From sequence record NC_111505.1: a stretch of DNA of 64,000 nucleotides; one strand, 5' to 3'. Shown piece by piece: positions 2,897-40,700 of this stretch; within the stretch, counting starts at the first letter, position 1; each line of letters begins with the position of its first letter. Below the pieces are notes generated by a model. It saw only the letters and a list, made by a program, of their open reading frames with translations. It did no database searches and had not been told where the DNA came from. The DNA comes from a phage. A program made the translations under genes and the position numbers.

Positions 2897-2910
2897 ATCT
2901 GGAGATTTGC

Positions 2911-3444
2911 ATGACTTGTGCTAGAAAACCTGATGAACAACGTAACGCTTACGATGAGTATGTGACACCGGAGTGGTGTGCAGAAGGGCTGTATGACCTT
3001 ATTCCGTTCCCAGAAGACTGGACTTACTTAGAGCCTTGCAGGAATAGTGCCTCAGGTGTGTTCTACTCCCGTATGCCGTTAGGATCCGCATGGGGAGAAA
3101 TTCAAGAAGGTGTTGACTATCTGAATACAGAATACAACCATGTTGACTGTATTATCACCAACCCGCCGTACAGCCTGGCTCGTGAGTTTGTGGACAAGGC
3201 GTTGAAAGATGCCGATGTAGTTATTATGCTTTTGCGTCTTAATTTTCTGGAAAGCAAAGCCAGATTTGAATGGTGGCTTGATAATGCACCTACCACTGTG
3301 ATCACAATATCTAAGCGTCCATCATTCCAATCGAATGGCAGAACTGACGGGCAAGCATATGCATATTTTGTGTGGGACAAGAAGAACCGTTTAGACCTGC
3401 CGCCATTTATGTGGTTGGCACCTCCAGAGGTAGACCTGAAATGA
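2911..3444 (+). CDS. DNA N6-adenine (or N4-cytosine) methyltransferase
   Basis: Catalytic ...DCIITNPPY... motif; ATG with GGAG 7 nt upstream. Confidence 0.6.
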   Translation: MTCARKPDEQRNAYDEYVTPEWCAEGLYDLIPFPEDWTYLEPCRNSASGVFYSRMPLGSAWGEIQEGVDYLNTEYNHVDCIITNPPYSLAREFVDKALKDADVVIMLLRLNFLESKARFEWWLDNAPTTVITISKRPSFQSNGRTDGQAYAYFVWDKKNRLDLPPFMWLAPPEVDLK

Positions 3445-3725
3445 AAATGAGTGCTAAGGACAAGTTGCACCAGTTAGCGCTAAAACGTCCTGTAACGCTT
3501 CCTGACGAGCTTAACTCCATTTATGATGCGATTGTAGGGGAGATACAAAATAAAGCGTTAGCAGGCTTTCTGGGATGTGGATTTTCGATAAATCTACCCT
3601 CGCACCTCTCAGACTACTTCCCACACATCGTTGGGGATTTGAGGGCAGGAGGTTTGCAGGTGGATGTTGTTGGCATCTCTCCGGAGAAAAATAACACGGT
3701 TGCCTACTTGACAGTGACCTGGTAG
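3441..3725 (+). CDS. hypothetical protein (94 aa)
   Basis: ATG 3441 overlaps the MTase stop (ATGA coupling); in frame with track ORF 3372-3725. Confidence 0.55.
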   Translation: MKMSAKDKLHQLALKRPVTLPDELNSIYDAIVGEIQNKALAGFLGCGFSINLPSHLSDYFPHIVGDLRAGGLQVDVVGISPEKNNTVAYLTVTW

Positions 3726-4435: not shown

Positions 4436-4669
4436 ATGAAAGTTAAATTTCTTACAGATTTAGGGTACCCTTCCTTGGTTGACTGCGTTGGTAAAATTGT
4501 GGAAGCAAAACGACTATCTGCAAACGATAATGTTGTCATGGTTAAGGGAAAAGATTTACTATCTGCAGGTGCAGAGTCTGGCAGGATCTCTCCTGACTAT
4601 ACGTATTACCTGTCTTTAAGTAATCTACCAGAACGAGGCGGCAAAGGTCTTGAAGTTGTGGAGGAGTGA
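4436..4669 (+). CDS. small acidic protein, MKVK...VEIVE paralog family
   Basis: ATG with AGGAGG SD; N-terminal MKVKFL and C-terminal ...LEVVEE shared with at least 9 other ORFs in the window. Confidence 0.6.
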   Translation: MKVKFLTDLGYPSLVDCVGKIVEAKRLSANDNVVMVKGKDLLSAGAESGRISPDYTYYLSLSNLPERGGKGLEVVEE

Positions 4670-14651: not shown

Positions 14652-14795
14652 GAGTTCAGAGGTGGCAGACTATGAAGCACCGAGCCCACATAAGTTTATC
14701 ATGCTAAAGCATGGCCTGAAGAGGCAAACGTATATAAATTCCAGTGCATTGGAACGTATAACCCTGTTCACACTCTCATTTCCAGAGGAGATTTT

Positions 14796-15011: not shown

Positions 15012-15359
15012 CACACAATTAGCTGCCAGGCTAAAGTGCTGGAAGCACCTATAACACATCTTTCAACTAAATTTCCTACCACCACAATCACTTACCTCCC
15101 ACACATGACTGTTTGCTTGTTTAGTGAGCAGTCATGCCTTGACATTCTTGCCTATCCTGATAAAATTAAGTTCTTCTCTTTTCTTTTACCGAGTAATTCG
15201 GGTTTTCTGTTCTCTTCGGTTTGAAGGGGTATGGAGATACACCTGAGTGAACAGGGTGAACAACCGAACAGTTGGCTATGGCATTAGCATGGCGAAGCGG
15301 ACGGGTGACGAAAGAGGGGCCGGAGGACACCAGTCACTGCCATATGGTATATGGGTGAT

Positions 15360-15925
15360 AACCTGAAGAGTCTGAATAAGTGTTTAAGTACCAGTCAGAG
15401 GAAAAGGTGAATGGTAGCCGAAGGGGGAGGGGGGTTTCTTGTATCTTTAATTTGTATATTTTATATACACTTGTAAACCAATTTCATCTGAATCTGTTTA
15501 CCACACAAAGTGGATAAAGTCAAATATTCCCTATTAAACTTGAATTATTTATAGAAAATACCACAACACCACTTAAGTCTTTGATTTTACACACAAATCT
15601 TACAAATATCTTACCTCCATATTTAACATACCTGTAACATATTCCATACTCTACCTGCCTGGTCAATTTACCCACCACATTCTCCACATTTTCCCTTCCT
15701 GTACTACCCCTGCCCCGCCGGGAGTCCCGTCATATCTGGCTTTCCAGCAAATATCACACCCACAAATATCATCACCTGAAGAGTGATTCATCCTATAATA
15801 CCTGCCTTACCTGAAGAGCGCTCCATACCCCACGTAAATTTTTTAATTGACCCCCTGCCCCGCCGGAGGGGTTGGCTTTTCCCACACAGGCCTGAAGAGT
15901 CAGCCAGAAATATCTGAAGGGGGTC
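15360..15925. repeat. Dispersed CCTGAAGAG motif (5 copies) plus two CCCTGCCCCGCCGG copies
   Basis: Copies near 15362, 15777, 15812, 15892, 15914; GC-rich direct repeats near 15708 and 15852; irregular spacing as for protein-binding sites. Confidence 0.5.
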
Positions 15926-16096
15926 CAGTTCTGCCACGATTTTGACCTGACCTACAGGAGCGCTGCCAGGCGGACGAAATGGGAATACTTCTCATTCTTA
16001 TAACAATTCTCAAATATCAAGGCAGTGAGGCAAATTAATAGGCGAGGCCGTTCACACAGTGGCGCAACATTTGCAAGCTATTTTGTGTGGATGAAT

Positions 16097-16130
16097 GAGA
16101 ATACTTATCATTGTGAGAATCGTTATCATT
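16097..16130. repeat. Tandem 16-mer GAGAATNNTTATCATT (2 copies, 2-nt spacer)
   Basis: 16097-16112 and 16115-16130; the same 16-mer recurs at 27733-27748 and 27869-27884. Confidence 0.55.
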
Positions 16131-16534
16131 ACGGGCAATTTAACATAATACCCATTATGCGCACCACTGGCGATACATACATGGATTGATAACATGGGTT
16201 ACTGTTTACGCATATAACAATTGTATTTCTTATTATTTGTGGGGGATATAGTTAGCGACCAATAGATTAGATATTAACCTGCAGACTTCTGACCGTCCAG
16301 ACGTCTAAACGCCCACACAACAAGGGTTATACATACACTCCTGAATGTAAACAGGGCAGCAAAAATGCTACCATACCAGATTGTAAATTTTCCATGCAGC
16401 ACTTGACAAAGAGGAGAAAAACTTGTCTGACACAATGTCACACAATATGCCATAATCTGACACCTTATACACTTTCGACACAATAACGACTGTTATTATT
16501 TCATGTTTCATTGTTCACGTGCAGATTGTTCCCA

Positions 16535-16890
16535 CATAGACTGTTTACGCCCGGATAGTTTACACCTTGACAGTTTACACAAAGATGATAAGCCATGACA
16601 TTCGTTTGCATGATAACACCCTTGAGACGAGGGCCATGCTCCCGAGTTTAACAATTAACAAGATAACAATTGACAGGCCGACAATTAACAAGTTAACAAT
16701 ATATGACATAATATAAAAGCAGGGCAACTATTAGCAGATCATAGTTGCCTTGCTTATTATGTCATGATTAACTGAATACAAGGCAACTATGATCTGATCA
16801 ATAGTTTGCAGGCAAACTATCACGGGGGTGATGGTTACTGCTTTTATATTATGTCGCGACTCCGTCGCGCCATGACATTCGTTTGCATAG
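16535..16890. repeat. Cluster of direct repeats and palindromes (operator/iteron-like)
   Basis: Three (C/T)(T/A)GTTTACRC repeats at 16541-16582; CATGACATTCGTTTGCAT twice (16594, 16871); ACAATTAACAAG twice; two palindromes GCAACTAT-N9/10-ATAGTT(T)GC with GATC cores (16724-16748, 16783-16809). Confidence 0.5.
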
Positions 16891-17499
16891 TTGCCTTATT
16901 GTTACAGGTAAAACAATTACATTGTTAACTATTTCTTATCTTTCTCTTAGTCATCTAATGATTCCAGTCAGTATAGTTATGTACAGTAAACATTAGACGA
17001 CTAAAGATTTCTCTGATTATAGTAACCTATCGTGACAATTTCAGACTGTTTACGAAAAATGTTGACACCTGGGCGGGTTTATGTTATGCAGTTTACACGA
17101 ATAATTATTTCATACAGGTATTGACTATTCCGTTATTCTGTGGTTGGAATAAATACTTTGCAGGCTATAGAATGGTGTGCGTACGTGAATTCTGAGATCT
17201 GGCGGCTATAGTTACACCCGATTTTTCGCGCAGAACACGCTTTTTGGTTTGTGTAAGTGTATGACTTATAAAGATTTTTAGTTGTTGACACGGTATTGAA
17301 GATGTGCATCAGGTTAAATTTTGTGCAATAACTGCATTACGTGCAATTTTGGGAGAGAAAACGGGTAAAAATAGCACCGCTACCACACAATGAAAGGTTA
17401 TGCAATAGCTATTTTACATGTATATTTGTACAGTGTGCGGGATTGATGGCTCGTCAATTATTCCACTTGTCAGGTAGGGCCGTTTATGGTATGGGGAAG

Positions 17500-17529
17500 A
17501 GCAGACAAAAAGAAAGGGGCCTAAGCCCC
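17500..17529 (-). terminator. Rho-independent terminator at the end of the - strand transcription unit
   Basis: GGGGC-TTAG-GCCCC hairpin followed on the - strand by TTTCTTTTTGTC. Confidence 0.6.
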
Positions 17530-17549
17530 TTGATAATTCAGTTAAAAAA

Positions 17550-17969
17550 TTATAATGATTCGTATATTTCAAAAATCCGATTTGCCAGGTCGTTACGGTA
17601 GCGGAATTTTTCCTCACGTTTGATCATCAGATCTTTAAAGCCGTATTCTTTAAGCACTTCATTAACTTTATGGCGGCACACCTTCATATTGTCCTGAGCG
17701 TCACCAATAAACCTGTTGCTATGGTGCATGGCTTTAATTTCTTCTTCCAGGACCAGGGCAACTATGCGGACCGGATCAAGCTGATAGGCGGTAACATCCA
17801 TGCGGCATTGTAAACGGCTTTTTACGTCTGCCACCGGATATACTGCAACCTCCTCCCCGTCAACATTGACAATAATTAGTTTACCATCGATTTCGAATCC
17901 TTTCGCCGCCGGACCGTGACAAAAAGCGTTATCAAAGCTATATGCCGGATTATTAGATTTAATGTTCAT
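17550..17969 (-). CDS. hypothetical protein (139 aa)
   Basis: ATG with AAGAGG SD. Confidence 0.6.
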   Translation of the reverse strand: MNIKSNNPAYSFDNAFCHGPAAKGFEIDGKLIIVNVDGEEVAVYPVADVKSRLQCRMDVTAYQLDPVRIVALVLEEEIKAMHHSNRFIGDAQDNMKVCRHKVNEVLKEYGFKDLMIKREEKFRYRNDLANRIFEIYESL

Positions 17970-27529: not shown

Positions 27530-27594
27530 TTTTGTACCTCCTCTTCAATTGTTACTATCCTATAGCATAGGCCCACCAGGCTGGCCCCGCCAGG

Positions 27595-27623
27595 TTGCAG
27601 CGGTTAGCGCATCAGGTTAGAAT
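27595..27623 (+). promoter_or_regulatory. Sigma70-like promoter (TTGCAG-N17-TAGAAT), + strand, followed by T10 run
   Basis: First of two tandem rightward promoters facing an ORF-free region. Confidence 0.5.
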
Positions 27624-27642
27624 TTTTTTTTTTTGAAAAGTG

Positions 27643-27671
27643 TTGACAGCGGCCCCGCCAGGTGGCACAAT
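27643..27671 (+). promoter_or_regulatory. Sigma70-like promoter (TTGACA-N17-CACAAT), + strand
   Basis: Consensus -35; weaker -10; directly upstream of structured element copy 1. Confidence 0.4.
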
Positions 27672-27675
27672 ATAC

Positions 27676-27750
27676 ATATCGAAAGGACGGCAGGCACCGG
27701 TGACGGGGGAGACAACCACCGGGGATGGGCGCTGCATGAAATGAGAACGA
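27676..27750 (+). ncRNA. Candidate small structured RNA / repeated element, copy 1
   Basis: No ORF; internal CCGGTG..CACCGG stem; conserved blocks GGGAGACAAYCACCGGGGRTG and GAGAAYGATTATCATT shared with copy 2. Confidence 0.25.
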
Positions 27751-27819
27751 TTATCATTATCGTCTAAAAATTTATGCAAAAACTTCTTGCTTTCTTTGTC
27801 CTGTGTGATACTATAATAA

Positions 27820-27886
27820 CAAGCCGGGGCAGTAGGGGCCGGGAGACAATCACCGGGGGTGCCCGTTATTCTGCAAACGAGAATGA
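27820..27886 (+). ncRNA. Candidate small structured RNA / repeated element, copy 2
   Basis: Preceded by promoter-like TTGCTT..TATAAT (27787-27817); same conserved blocks as copy 1. Confidence 0.25.
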
Positions 27887-28009
27887 TTATCATTCAAAAT
27901 TCTAAATGATAACTTTTCGCATTTCATAAATTTAGTTAGCATGCTAATTACCTACCGTGACAATTCTATATAAAATAATACCTCCTAAAATATTCCCATA
28001 TAGAAATTT

Positions 28010-28185
28010 TAAAAATCCATTTCTGAAAACGAAAAATCGATTTCGTCCCCAAAAATTTCAGGTCGAGCGCCGGAACGATTCCCAGAAAATCTGATTCAGA
28101 AAACGAAAAACAGATCGAGTACCGAAAAATTTATCGAGAAAAATTTTCAGAAAATTCAATCTTTGAAACGAAAAACAGATCGAGT
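28010..28185. repeat. AT-rich iteron array (3 copies of GAAAACGAAAAACAGATCGAGTAC-like 23-mer with GATC cores)
   Basis: Copies at about 28019, 28094, 28160 (66-75 bp spacing); flanking ATCCATTT repeats at 28011, 28371, 28391, 28453. Confidence 0.45.
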
Positions 28186-28518
28186 ACTGAGAGAGAGATG
28201 TATCAAAACTTACTGATAATAATTAACTTATTGTCATAAAAGGCCGAAGGTAAGTTGGGAAAGTTCTGGTAGAAGGGTGAGAGTGTGTGCGGAAAATCTG
28301 GAACGGTGATTTGAAGTACGGTGCGAATGATAGAATGAGCAGCGCAGCTTATCGCGCCTGTATTGAAAAAATCCATTTTAGTTTTCGATCCATTTTCTGA
28401 TTTTCTAAGGATTTCCAAATATCTGCAAATATCTGATAAATAAGGGAAAATCCATTACATATTTTCCCTCATCGCCTAAAATTTTTATAATTTTAAAATA
28501 AATACTACCATAAATATC

Positions 28519-37480: not shown

Positions 37481-37756
37481 CAATAGTTCAGGTAGGTCGT
37501 TAAGCTACCCCGCACCATTACGTGCATAGCCATACGTTTTCACGTAGGATCGGACCATCTCATATTCCTATGATAAGCAACCACAGGAATCCTCCCATTT
37601 CGACCGCACTTGCTGGTCTACTTCCTTTCGGAATGGCCTCTGAGCGTTCGCTCTTTTGAGCGCTTCGTTGCGGATTACCTTGCCATAAGGTTTAGGCTTC
37701 CCGCAGTTAAAGAGGTTATTCGACATAGATTACTCTATGAAGCCACAATGTTATTT
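37481..37756 (-). mobile_element. ORF-less group I intron (IA2-like) interrupting the DNA polymerase gene at motif C
   Basis: 276 nt between pol ORF stop and 3' exon; 5' exon ends ...CAU (U), intron ends ...CUAUUG (G); GUGG near intron 5' end can pair with exon CCAU (P1, G-U at splice site); 3' part ...GGGGUAGCUUAACGACCUACCUGAACUAUUG resembles the T4 td intron 3' end as I recall it. Confidence 0.65.
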
Positions 37757-40700
37757 ATGGTAATAAATAATACGACGAACACCTTCATCGTACCACCCAC
37801 GCTTCACCATTTGGTGGTGCATGAGTATCCCAACTAAGTCACACAACGATGCACCACCATTTTGTTGGTATGCATTAAGTAAAGAGTGTTTAGATCGAGT
37901 CCAGATGGCATGACCATCAAAAGAGTAGATAAACTTCTTACCTGTTGCTTCCCAGAATTTCTCCAGATCCTCTTTGCGCCCCTTAAGACCAGGGTTGGCA
38001 TCCCAAAGCGCATCGATTACCTTTTGCCCTAACTCTGGGGAGATATCCAGCATGTCTGCAACTTTATCTTTTTGTGCCCCGTACATAACACCGTACGTGA
38101 CAGGCTTACCATCGTTACGGGAAATCTCCTTGCCTGCTACAGAAGAGTAAGCTTTGGCGTTATTACAGTTACCGCACACTGCCACTTTACCATTCCTTCT
38201 CACAATGATTGCTCCAGAAGGGACGGTAACGCAATAAACCAAAGAACCACTCACCTCGACAGACTCTTTAGATAGTGTCAGCAACCCTGCTCTCTGTTTG
38301 CTACCAATCGTGATTCTGTGCTGTACGGAACGACCTTTTTTGTGAATCGCCACCGTATTATTCCGTAAACCACACTGAGTAGCCAGCGCAGACACAACCT
38401 CTACAGATTTCTTCCTGCACTCGGCCTGAGAGTAGTAGGCAACTTTTCCACCTTCGGAAGATACCCACCCGTCCCAGTTAGATAAAGAAGCTATAAACAG
38501 GTTTTTAGATTCTTTATCAAGGTCCATCAGGTTGTAGGTGAAATCCTTATTGCTGTCCAAAAACTCAAATACCCAGGACGGAACGTGGAATTGGAACCTT
38601 CTCGCCAGTAAGCCCCCTTTTGTGGTTTTCCCGCCCTGCTCTACATAACTAAGGCTTAGAGCAGAAAAAGTATCTAAAAGCGTTGCAACTTTTCTGCCCT
38701 TCCCGACCTGAATCCTGCACACGATGCTGCCGTCCTTATTTGTATGCAAGTGTCCATCATCGTGAATAGCAATAAGCAAATTAATCTGGGCAGGAGATAA
38801 GGTTGTATTCCCATAAAACTCTGCCGCATGGATAAACCTTCTTCCTGAATTAGACCCTTTACCTGCTTTCAGGTCTTTTGCCAAATCTTCAAACAATTTA
38901 TTGCTTCTGTGATCCACGGTCAGCATCCTGTGTTGATCTGTAACCATAAAATCCACACCGCTGTTGTGGAAATGATACATATCCCCACAATAACCACGCT
39001 TAACGTAATTTAATGGTGTAACAAGGTTCATCGACGAGGTGTTGTGATCGTACTGGAACACTTGTGTTCCCGGATCAAGATCTTCAAACCTCACCCACCC
39101 TTTCTCCGTGAGAATTTGTGTATCTCCTGAATAACAGTGTGCATCGCCGTTACTTACAACATCATAATACAAGCCGTTGTCGAACTCAAAGGCACCCCAA
39201 GCCCCGATAAGCTGCTCTAAGTTGGACCCGTCAATACCGATCTCAAAGTATCCTGGAGGAACGCCCCACAGACTACGCATCTCTTTACCCATAACCACTT
39301 TAGGAGATGGTTTAGGCATGTTTGCACAAATACTGTGTTTCTGTCTGGAAGTGTTTGTCAATCCAGAACTTTTAGCAGGAAGCTTGTGGTCAATCTTCAG
39401 ACGTGGATGATTAAGAAGACCAGTATCAACCTTATCCTCCTTGATTGGATCAAGTACCGATCTACGGTTTCGCAAGGATAACCACAAGACGATATCTTTA
39501 GCCATCTCTCCGTTCAACTTTTCAAGATTCGGACATAGGTGTCCAAACGTATCTTTCAGTTGCGGAGAAGTAATAAGCGCTCTGGCTTTTCTACGTATCT
39601 TCCCAAACACTTCCTTTTTAATCCTTTCTGAGTTAGGGAAGCTTCGGAACTTGTGCACGGTTGTCTGAAACTTAGCATCAGTTTTGTTCCAGAAGTTGAT
39701 AATTAGGTCACAATACTCTGACTCTAAAAGCTCGTCCATATATGCATATACTCGTGCATCAACATCAGCATCAGGCAGAGCTTTCTTCTTGCTGTCCTTG
39801 GTTACATCTTTAGTTCTCCACATTGTTGGGAGCCAACCAGCGCTGATCAAATATCGCTTAATATCGTCCTGGTTGCTGATCTTCATAGGTATCTTGCAGT
39901 CAGGCATCCGCTTCTGCTGCAGATCACTTATTGCCTGATCCATTAGTTCTTTAGGTAAAGGATGTGGTGTCGAGGTACCTTTAATATACCCCCTTAAGAA
40001 ATCAGCCATCTTATCGGGGTCTTTGCAGCCCATCTCTTCACACCATTTTATCCCCATTTTGCTGACATCTCCTGTGGAGGTAAAGGCTCGCTTAGGTGGG
40101 GCTTTGAATTCTAAAGCACTCATGTCCACAGGATAGCCAAGCTTGTCTTTTAACCATTTCCAACCGTTATTAGAGATTGTCCCATCTTGGTTAAACGGCT
40201 TTTCAGGGAACTTAGGCCGCTGAGACATTGATAGCTCTTTTAGAGGAAGTTGTGGTTCAACACGATCAGCGATCTCTTTCATCCACGCATCGCAGCGGTC
40301 ACGTAAAGCAATAGCCCCATCTATGTCGAAATACACACCCTGTCGAGCCTGCAGCTCCATCAGGAAATGCTGCAGCATGCCTCGGCGTAATGCATTCTTC
40401 CAGGTGATCTTCTTGAAGCCTTTCGGCTTCTCTTTGGCAGGATCGTACATAAAGTTCTGCATGTCAGATTTGCCGTAGAATACACCTTTTGATTCTGCTA
40501 CCAACTCCTTCCAGAGCAACTCCTGGATGATAACGTCCTCGAACACACGATCCACATACTTCCACAGCGGAAGCTCACGCCAGTCATCGATTTGAACTTT
40601 CTGGTTACCAAGGGCATAGCCCCATGCCATAAGGCCATGAGGCCCAACAGGTTGCATTTTCTTGGTAACTGGATTGAATACTGCGTCCGGACAACCTTTT

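Follow-up and report, generated by a model that had tools for sequence, protein, structure and literature searches.

What occupies the 2538 bp between positions 15012 and 17549 of the phage sequence NC_111505.1, where two convergent gene arrays are separated by DNA dense in repeats? We have analysed this region within a window of 64,000 nt, i.e. the whole stretch of DNA under study. The initial annotation had offered four explanations: a packaging site, a replication origin, a regulatory switch, or the physical ends of the genome joined in the assembly. Comparison with related phages bears out the last of these, and identifies the segment 15969-16427 with the 459-bp direct terminal repeat of the virion DNA.

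The region contains the terminal repeat of the virion chromosome

A BLAST search with the 2538-bp region matched 121 phage records at ~84-95% identity, all of them Vequintavirus, although some bear the wrong name 'Campylobacter phage'. These are rV5-like myoviruses with genomes of ~137 kb, and by these matches the source phage is a Vequintavirus, i.e. an rV5-like myovirus of E. coli. The counterpart in rV5 itself lies at 104014-106617, between ORF163 (+ strand) and ORF164 (- strand; ORF, open reading frame). In the description of the rV5 genome this appears as a grey box labelled 'non-coding', without ORFs, for which no function was offered (PMC3606486, 2013). A change of GC and AT skew at 104425-105475 was attributed by the same authors to the change in direction of transcription (PMC3606486).

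Position 958 of the query, i.e. 15969 of the window, is the first base of five records in the BLAST table, those of phages YN3, Gotham, EdH4, bov10K2 and bov22_2. The Gotham record is annotated with a 459-bp repeat_region at each end, the two copies being identical, and BLAST mapping of the record ends places both copies on 15969-16427. The EdH4 record has exactly 459 bp in common between its ends, and both the Gotham and EdH4 records finish at the equivalent of 16427. A sixth record, that of Aya, was opened in the opposite orientation, exactly between 16427 and 16428. The same boundaries are therefore found in independent isolates, with five records at 15969 and Gotham, EdH4 and Aya at 16427. 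The Gotham and EdH4 copies align end to end with the segment, so by orthology only the same sequence would lie at both virion ends here.

The ends of the relatives were defined by terminus analysis using read coverage, the check that had been proposed for this locus. The Gotham repeat was deduced from coverage that was twofold over one region (PMC7471380). Doubled coverage also defined the repeats of EdH4 and HdK5, for which Korf et al. independently reported terminal redundancies of 458 bp (PMC6563267). In the window the repeat is present as one copy only. Since there is a single copy, and other records open at 15969 and at 16427/16428, the assembly has joined the virion ends and collapsed the repeat. 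Judged by orthology to these coverage-defined ends, which establishes its identity, position and boundaries, the segment 15969-16427 is the collapsed single copy of the virion direct terminal repeat, orthologous base for base. The suggestion of a packaging site follows from this, because the terminase of an exact-end phage must recognise and cut at the terminal repeat. An origin or a regulatory switch may be present in addition.

We therefore read the whole region as the terminal region of a Vequintavirus chromosome, as it would appear in a concatemer or a circularised assembly, with exact-end packaging of the T7/T3 type, and give this a probability of roughly 0.88. The T7 type is assigned because the repeat is short and exact, has fixed boundaries, lies in non-coding DNA and occurs once per junction, and because PhageTerm places the related phage KPP-1 in this class.

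That Vequintaviruses carry a terminal repeat within the 'non-coding' box is already known from the literature and from GenBank features. The cut-site contexts shared between genera, the covarying palindrome, and the arrays of Fur-like and DnaA boxes appear to be undescribed so far; the fine anatomy of the region is new but modest. Many of the 121 related records start at arbitrary points, and 15969-16427 provides a natural start coordinate. Moreover, rV5-like phages are used against pathogenic E. coli, and this region is DNA that should not be disturbed in engineering them.

Layout and conservation of the region

The region is best described as three segments, A, B and C. The features that define them are as follows; a slash marks the cut.

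15012-15968, unstranded: segment A, unique non-coding DNA lying ahead of the right-hand repeat copy in the virion; mean identity 0.90 to 17 relatives.
15957-15976, unstranded: context of the left terminus, GGAGYGCTGCCA/GGCGGACG, cut 15968/15969; five records start here.
15969-16427, unstranded: segment B, the direct terminal repeat of 459 bp; mean identity 0.91, almost gap-free, a single copy in the assembly.
16399-16436, unstranded: context of the right terminus, CTTGACAAAGAGGAGAAAAACTTGTC/TGACAC, cut 16427/16428; Gotham and EdH4 end and Aya opens here.
16428-17549: segment C, unique DNA of the left end, following the left-hand copy of the repeat.
16440-16715, unstranded: hypervariable, indel-rich stretch, identity 0.19-0.76, gaps up to 0.76, starting ~10 bp to the right of 16427.
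16900-17513, unstranded: conserved non-coding DNA, with + strand TTGACA at 17062 and 17285 and CTGTTTACG/GTTTACAC motifs.
17514-17531, - strand: intrinsic terminator of the - strand array, AAGGGGCTTAGGCCCCTT then TCTTTTTG.

Segment A extends from the stop codon of the last + strand gene (15011) to the start of the repeat, and has no coding signal. The repeat is flanked by the terminators of the two convergent arrays, and the records of Gotham, EdH4 and Murica have a terminator annotated where that of the - strand array lies. Conservation in segments A and B (0.90 and 0.91) is like that of the neighbouring genes, with two exceptions that lie exactly at the repeat boundaries. At the left boundary there is an indel hot spot 12 bp from 15969, where relatives have 0, ~40 or ~70 extra bases that in some cases begin with a second copy of GGAGYGCT. 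At the right boundary lies the hypervariable stretch; this contains 15-bp tandem repeats at 16539-16580 and 16649-16700 (Tandem Repeats Finder, TRF), present in 0-3 copies among relatives, and marks a stretch that tolerates insertions. These breaks in conservation coincide with the mapped ends, and provide independent support for the boundaries in this lineage. Within segment C the block 17202-17311 is also conserved in an IMG8-like lineage, a divergent Vequintavirus-like lineage from IMG/VR with ~55% identity over the region; the search of IMG/VR with the flanking gene gave three loci only.

Comparison with other terminal regions

The repeats of EdH4, HdK5 and Gotham (458-459 bp) and the rV5 box are orthologous to the region, with 86-95% identity and boundaries that are the same to the base. 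They occupy the same place between ORF163-like and ORF164-like genes. The window differs from EdH4 and Gotham in having the repeat once, the assembly having been joined across the ends. The publications on EdH4, HdK5 and Gotham give the length of the repeat only; its connection with the 2.5-kb gene-free region and the anatomy of the motifs are not described there.

Similar arrangements are found in more distant phages. Klebsiella phage KPP-1 (Mydovirus, of the same subfamily) has a 514-bp repeat, defined by coverage and by PhageTerm as T7-type (PMC9862379), which lies inside a gene-free stretch of ~1.8 kb between convergent arrays. In Phapecoctavirus (Stephanstirmvirinae) a homologue of ORF164 that is 90% identical adjoins a gene-free stretch of 1.5 kb, and the record of Mt1B1_P17, a member of this genus, has an exact 328-bp repeat at both ends, beside the ORF164 homologue. 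Terminal repeats have been reported in Stephanstirmvirinae, including one of 342 bp in Justusliebigvirus BME3 (PMC12695924, PMC12210895). Outside the shared motifs, the terminal regions of KPP-1 and Phapecoctavirus gave no BLAST alignment with the window.

The motifs that are shared lie in corresponding places. The context of the left cut is GCTGCCA/GGCGGACG in the window, GGTGCTA/GACGGACA (GGTGCTA/GACGGAC) in KPP-1 and AGTGCTT/AACGCGAA (AGTGCTT/AACGCG) in Mt1B1_P17, while at the right cut CTTGACAAAGAGGAGAAAAACTTGTC/ in the window compares with CTTGACAAGGAGAGAGAATTGTGTT/ in KPP-1. Common to the different genera are CAAATATCA, which lies ~40 nt into the repeat, copies of the box GAGAAT..TTATCATT, and, within segment C, CTTGACAGTTTACAC together with an AACTAT..ATAGTT palindrome. 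Stephanstirmvirinae and KPP-1 have the repeat inside 1.5-1.8 kb of DNA without genes, and with the window they share ACAATTCYCAAATATC close to the left boundary, GAATGAGAATAMTTATCATT boxes, a run of purines ahead of the right boundary, and a nested palindrome whose outer stem covaries. They differ in the length of the repeat, and in phAPEC8 the genes beyond the region are co-directional rather than convergent. Cut-site contexts and motif arrays that are conserved across two subfamilies offer concrete targets for mutation in the study of the packaging mechanism.

In phages T7 and T3 the terminal repeats are 160-230 bp long; the terminase cuts at exact positions and the repeat is duplicated during processing. 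The window is similar in having a short, exact repeat in non-coding DNA, with fixed ends, one copy per junction and an inverted repeat nearby. It differs in that its phage is a myovirus using the host RNA polymerase, and that the flanking genes point towards the ends, not inward from the left end. Its large palindrome is situated to the left-end side of the repeat, that of T7 to the right-end side. A hairpin intermediate in T7 was reportedly described by Chung and Hinkle. Formation of such an intermediate at an inverted repeat of this kind has been reported for T7, as summarised in PMC4281155. No homology to T7 sequences was seen, no dedicated test having been made.

Near the chromosome end of phage T5, within its ~10-kb terminal repeat, there is a non-coding stretch rich in repeats and palindromes that has been proposed as an injection stop signal in the two-step transfer of its DNA. 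The window shares with it a gene-free stretch of >1 kb, close to an end of the chromosome and crowded with direct and inverted repeats. However, the T5 stretch lies inside the long repeat and is tied to DNA transfer, whereas the region gives no sign of a role in DNA entry.

Candidate packaging signals

Three sets of short repeats lie on the + strand, largely in segment A.

15362, 15775, 15810 and 15891 (15362-15899), + strand: CCTGAAGAG, four copies, all on one strand.
15603, 15748 and 15763, with a fourth at 16011 inside the repeat, + strand: CAAATATC, invariant like CCTGAAGAG with variable neighbours.
15707 and 15852, + strand: CCCCTGCCCCGCCGG, two copies.

All four CCTGAAGAG copies are present in 16 of 18 sequences including IMG8, the motif being invariant while the adjacent bases vary. 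The sequences CCTGAAGWGTCAGCC and ATCTGAAGGG also occur in segment A of KPP-1. The most plausible candidates for recognition by the small subunit of the terminase are the one-sided CCTGAAGAG and CAAATATC arrays, which together with the two boundary contexts probably constitute the signals for recognition and cutting. We also considered CCTGAAGAG as the upstream element of a class of phage promoter. This was rejected, since elsewhere in the window CTGAAGRG is found within ordinary coding sequence, and the distance to -10-like hexamers is not constant.

By analogy with T7, replication would generate concatemers with one repeat per junction, and the terminase would recognise sequences at and around the junction. 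Cutting at 15968/15969 would give the left end and cutting at 16427/16428 the right end, while the repeat would be duplicated through DNA synthesis during processing, the virion then carrying it at both ends. The + strand array would end at 15189-15212 and the - strand array at 17531-17514, at the outer edges of the region, and the dense repeats would be cis-acting sites serving the biology of the ends. This T7-like mechanism of cutting and duplication, and the pairing of motifs with proteins, are what we infer from the comparison. A 2026 review notes that understanding of exact-end packaging lags behind that of cos or headful packaging (PMC13595956).

Element X, a covarying nested palindrome

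Segment C contains a structured part that we call element X.

16705-16868, unstranded: element X, a nested palindrome with a perfect outer stem of 18 bp (16705-22/16838-55).
16592-16611 and 16869-16888, + strand: 20-bp direct repeats GCCATGACATTCGTTTGCAT that bracket element X.

The outer stem encloses palindromes of the GGCAACTAT type, which have GATC cores, as well as a hairpin AACTATCAC..GTGATGGTT; a small GC hairpin GCGACtccGTCGC trails at 16856-68. As single-stranded DNA the element folds with -51.6 kcal/mol (z -9.9), and its identity among relatives is 0.90-0.98. In the IMG8-like lineage an analogous pair of repeats, GCGCCATGTTATCGTTGCAT, brackets the corresponding element. The outer arms are found at the same relative position in four lineages, perfect yet different in sequence, with 18 nt in the window, 17 in the IMG8-like lineage, 21 in KPP-1 and 15 in phAPEC8. 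Between the window and IMG8 nine consecutive pairs of the outer stem are exchanged compensatorily. The outer stem thus covaries across four lineages, and nowhere in the region is selection on structure more evident than in element X.

Element X may serve in processing of the ends or in replication, or act as a bidirectional barrier to transcription. The last is suggested because T-runs follow the inner hairpins on both strands, and one of these is annotated as a terminator in Murica.

Fur-box-like sites in the repeat

16096-16130, + strand: tandem Fur-box-like sites TGAGAATACTTATCA / TGAGAATCGTTATCA, with a period of 18 bp.

The Fur box of E. coli in its 7-1-7 form is TGATAATnATTATCA. The sites in the repeat match this at 12 of 14 positions, and those of KPP-1 and phAPEC8 at 13 of 14, so that by sequence they resemble Fur boxes. 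They have the form GAGAAY-NN-TTATCATT, in which the flanks are fixed and the NN spacer is variable in relatives. Allowing up to two mismatches there are six hits in the window compared with 0.58 expected, and two of these are within the repeat. In KPP-1 (7-kb locus) and phAPEC8 (11-kb locus) all hits, five of five and three of three respectively, lie in the terminal gene-free region. Three further hits in the window fall in a second gene-poor region, and therefore the motif is not end-specific. In the left half these sites consistently read TGAGAA where the E. coli Fur box has TGATAA, suggesting a different or directional specificity. They may be bound by Fur itself, or by a phage protein whose specificity is similar.

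Fur-like boxes are present in all three lineages examined for them, and a triple array of perfect DnaA boxes in one lineage. One could imagine a chromosome-end module common to Vequintavirinae and Stephanstirmvirinae that recruits host DNA-binding proteins and, with element X, couples replication of the ends or duplication of the repeat, and perhaps iron status, to packaging. We regard this as speculative and decidedly unlikely.

A conserved promoter and purine-rich block in segment A

15139-15166, + strand: promoter P1, a strong sigma-70-type promoter TTGACA-N16-TAAAAT with extended -10 TG, 11/12 match.
15189-15212, + strand: hairpin and T-run, either the intrinsic terminator of the + strand array or a promoter-proximal attenuator.
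15230-15445, + strand: purine-rich block with conservation 0.95-0.98, ending in G5AG6TTT (15423-15437), a candidate untranslated transcript of P1.

In the IMG8-like lineage P1 is still a promoter with altered hexamers (TTGCAA-N17-TATAAT, with TG), the stem of the hairpin covaries (CCGAgtaatTCGG becoming CCAGAAtacgcTTCTGG), and the purine-rich block is partly conserved. A search for the pattern of the P1 block gave ten hits, with five by chance.

Repeat density and non-coding status

Repeated sequences of 11 nt or longer cover 302 nt of the region, compared with 46 +/- 32 (maximum 172) in Markov-1 simulations. Each of the five 2.5-kb windows that are densest in repeats across the 64 kb overlaps 15012-17549. 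There are 26 promoter-like sites (11.9 +/- 3.3 expected) and ten terminator-like sites (3.2 +/- 1.8 expected).

The catalogue of repeats in the initial annotation stood up well, with corrections of detail. The two CCCTGCCCCGCCGG sites are at 15708 and 15853 and nowhere else in the 64 kb. The tandem GAGAATNNTTATCATT has copies at 16097 and 16115 (TRF period 18), and the three GTTTACAC repeats lie at 16558, 16573 and 17091. The purine- and G-rich character of 15230-15430 was likewise confirmed (66% purine and 35% G, compared with 49% purine across the window). Of the five CCTGAAGAG sites claimed, four are within the region while the fifth, at 14715, is just outside, and there is only one further copy elsewhere in the 64 kb. 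The duplication reported as an 18-mer is real, but the repeated unit is the 20-mer GCCATGACATTCGTTTGCAT at 16592 and 16869. An inverted repeat of 29 bp is present (16703-16731 / 16741-16767) but is imperfect; the perfect arms are of 18 nt each, at 16705-22/16838-55 and 16735-52/16779-96. One of two palindromes, GCAACTAT-N9-ATAGTTGC, is exact as described, but that with the N10 spacer has an imperfect 3′ arm, ATAGTTTGC. The GATC cores of these palindromes hold three of the four GATC sites of the region. We note that the window contains 338 GATC sites (~1 per 189 bp) but only these four in 15012-17549. The proposed check on conservation, made here by alignment with the 17 relatives, found motifs such as CCTGAAGAG to be conserved.

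The absence of a convincing ORF was also upheld. In the same alignment the fraction of variable sites at third codon positions is 0.71 and 0.78 in the flanking genes, compared with 0.18-0.40 for every ORF of at least 35 aa inside the region, and most of these ORFs are broken in relatives. The small ORFs were rejected as genes on both grounds. The codon-position result therefore indicates that annotations filling the region with up to 16 small ORFs are spurious, and knowledge of the terminal repeat allows such false genes to be removed from the records.

Alternative explanations

Several points weigh against the region being the exact-end terminus of the chromosome. The ends of this isolate have been deduced by orthology and not measured on its own virion DNA, and re-orientation to match earlier records may be the only reason why some of the five open at 15969. 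All the links of motifs to the terminase are candidates based on sequence, and the Fur-box-like motif recurs in the second region of the window (27742, 27878), so that it does not mark ends specifically. In addition, for the Vequintavirus BpE1AUH the output of PhageTerm is reported to point to headful (pac) packaging and partial permutation (PMC13211470). On that basis the region would be a pac site, the virion DNA being terminally redundant and partly permuted, and the one-sided arrays of short repeats do resemble pac sites. However, two independent groups observed discrete doubled coverage of 458-459 bp with fixed starts (PMC7471380, PMC6563267), the records of several groups open at the same two bases, KPP-1 was classed as T7-type, and there are sharp boundaries of conservation exactly at 15969 and 16427. 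Headful packaging is therefore very unlikely.

The region or part of it might be a replication origin, and this could coexist with a terminal function. Transcription from P1 through the purine block as far as G5AG6TTT could leave an RNA-DNA hybrid that primes DNA synthesis, the strong conserved promoter being followed by a G-rich non-template strand. Alternatively an initiator might bind the repeats and palindromes of 16590-16900. The DNA here is of 38% GC (16-17 kb) and contains the 15-bp tandem repeats, the 20-bp direct repeats and GGCAACTAT sites that alternate in orientation; the number of 15-bp repeats is not conserved, however (0-3 copies). The predicted repeat of the IMG8-like lineage has three perfect DnaA boxes with identical spacing in three contigs, but in the lineage of the window a cluster was sought and rejected. 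Here the region has three sites with one mismatch against ~1 expected (28 in 64 kb) and none that is perfect, and a perfect box is absent from the 17 Vequintavirus sequences. Cumulative GC skew peaks at ~15 kb, but the turn coincides with convergent transcription, which is the explanation given by the rV5 authors. At least as origin-like is the second AT-rich region of the window (27.5-28.5 kb), which has three repeats spaced by ~70 bp. An origin here is thus possible but improbable. The same promoter and block would find a different explanation if the conserved parts encoded regulatory untranslated RNAs, i.e. a transcript of ~40 or ~270 nt starting at P1 and a long structured one that spans element X, the terminal location being incidental. 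P1 is conserved and the hairpin downstream covaries, 15066-15455 is more conserved than the neighbouring genes, and a pyrimidine leader and purine tail could pair in two lineages, mostly by G-U. The region also has six TTGACA hexamers, all on the + strand. On the other hand, 15172-15450 folds no better than shuffled sequences (z -0.93 for the + strand and -0.22 for the -), the RNAalifold covariation term is just -2.08 from two lineages, and the stems of element X are perfect Watson-Crick helices that indicate neither a strand nor an RNA. No Rfam family was matched in the region, and a scan of the whole window gave only a group I intron elsewhere; within the region the best hits were plant miRNA models at 25 bits, compared with gathering scores of at least 100. 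Our literature search found no transcriptome study of a Vequintavirus, and no transcript data. We consider the RNA explanation unlikely, and retain the reading of the region as the chromosome terminus.

Neighbouring genes and other observations

The Pfam and PHROGs databases provided no function for the flanking genes. The homologue of ORF164 (17550-17969, - strand) encodes 139 aa (phrog_12277, without a Pfam hit), and is ~90% identical between Vequintavirus and Phapecoctavirus, which belong to different subfamilies; in both it adjoins the terminal gene-free region. SYGMH1, Gotham and EdH4 lack the gene; it is therefore dispensable, and has probably been exchanged horizontally.

In the IMG8-like lineage segment A (~2900-3640 of the reverse complement of contig L008) has a - strand ORF of ~240 aa inserted in it; neither the window nor its close relatives possess this ORF, which may be a mobile insertion of the endonuclease type. 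The perfect DnaA boxes of this lineage, three copies of TTATCCACA with 19- and 12-bp spacing and variable spacers, lie at ~4534-4573 of the same reverse complement and also in L029 and L033. In all three contigs they are situated between motifs matching the repeat boundaries, the predicted repeat being ~665 bp.

The second AT-rich, gene-poor region at ~27530-28518 of the window (GC 0.36 over 28-29 kb) is a candidate replication origin. It has two GC-rich units each ending in a Fur-box-like site (27742 and 27878), together with two copies of GGCCCCGCCAGG, three GAAAACGAAAAACAGATCGAGTAC repeats that are 70-74 bp apart and two copies of CAAATATCT. In rV5 the small ORFs 198 and 199 are annotated in the counterpart of this region.

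A group I catalytic intron is present at 37531-37766 on the - strand (RF00028, 64.7 bits, E 4e-14), the only match to Rfam above gathering score in the 64 kb. Lastly, 19 records named 'Campylobacter phage' (UNVERIFIED, MG0656xx) are by sequence the genomes of rV5-like coliphages, so that the host label looks wrong.

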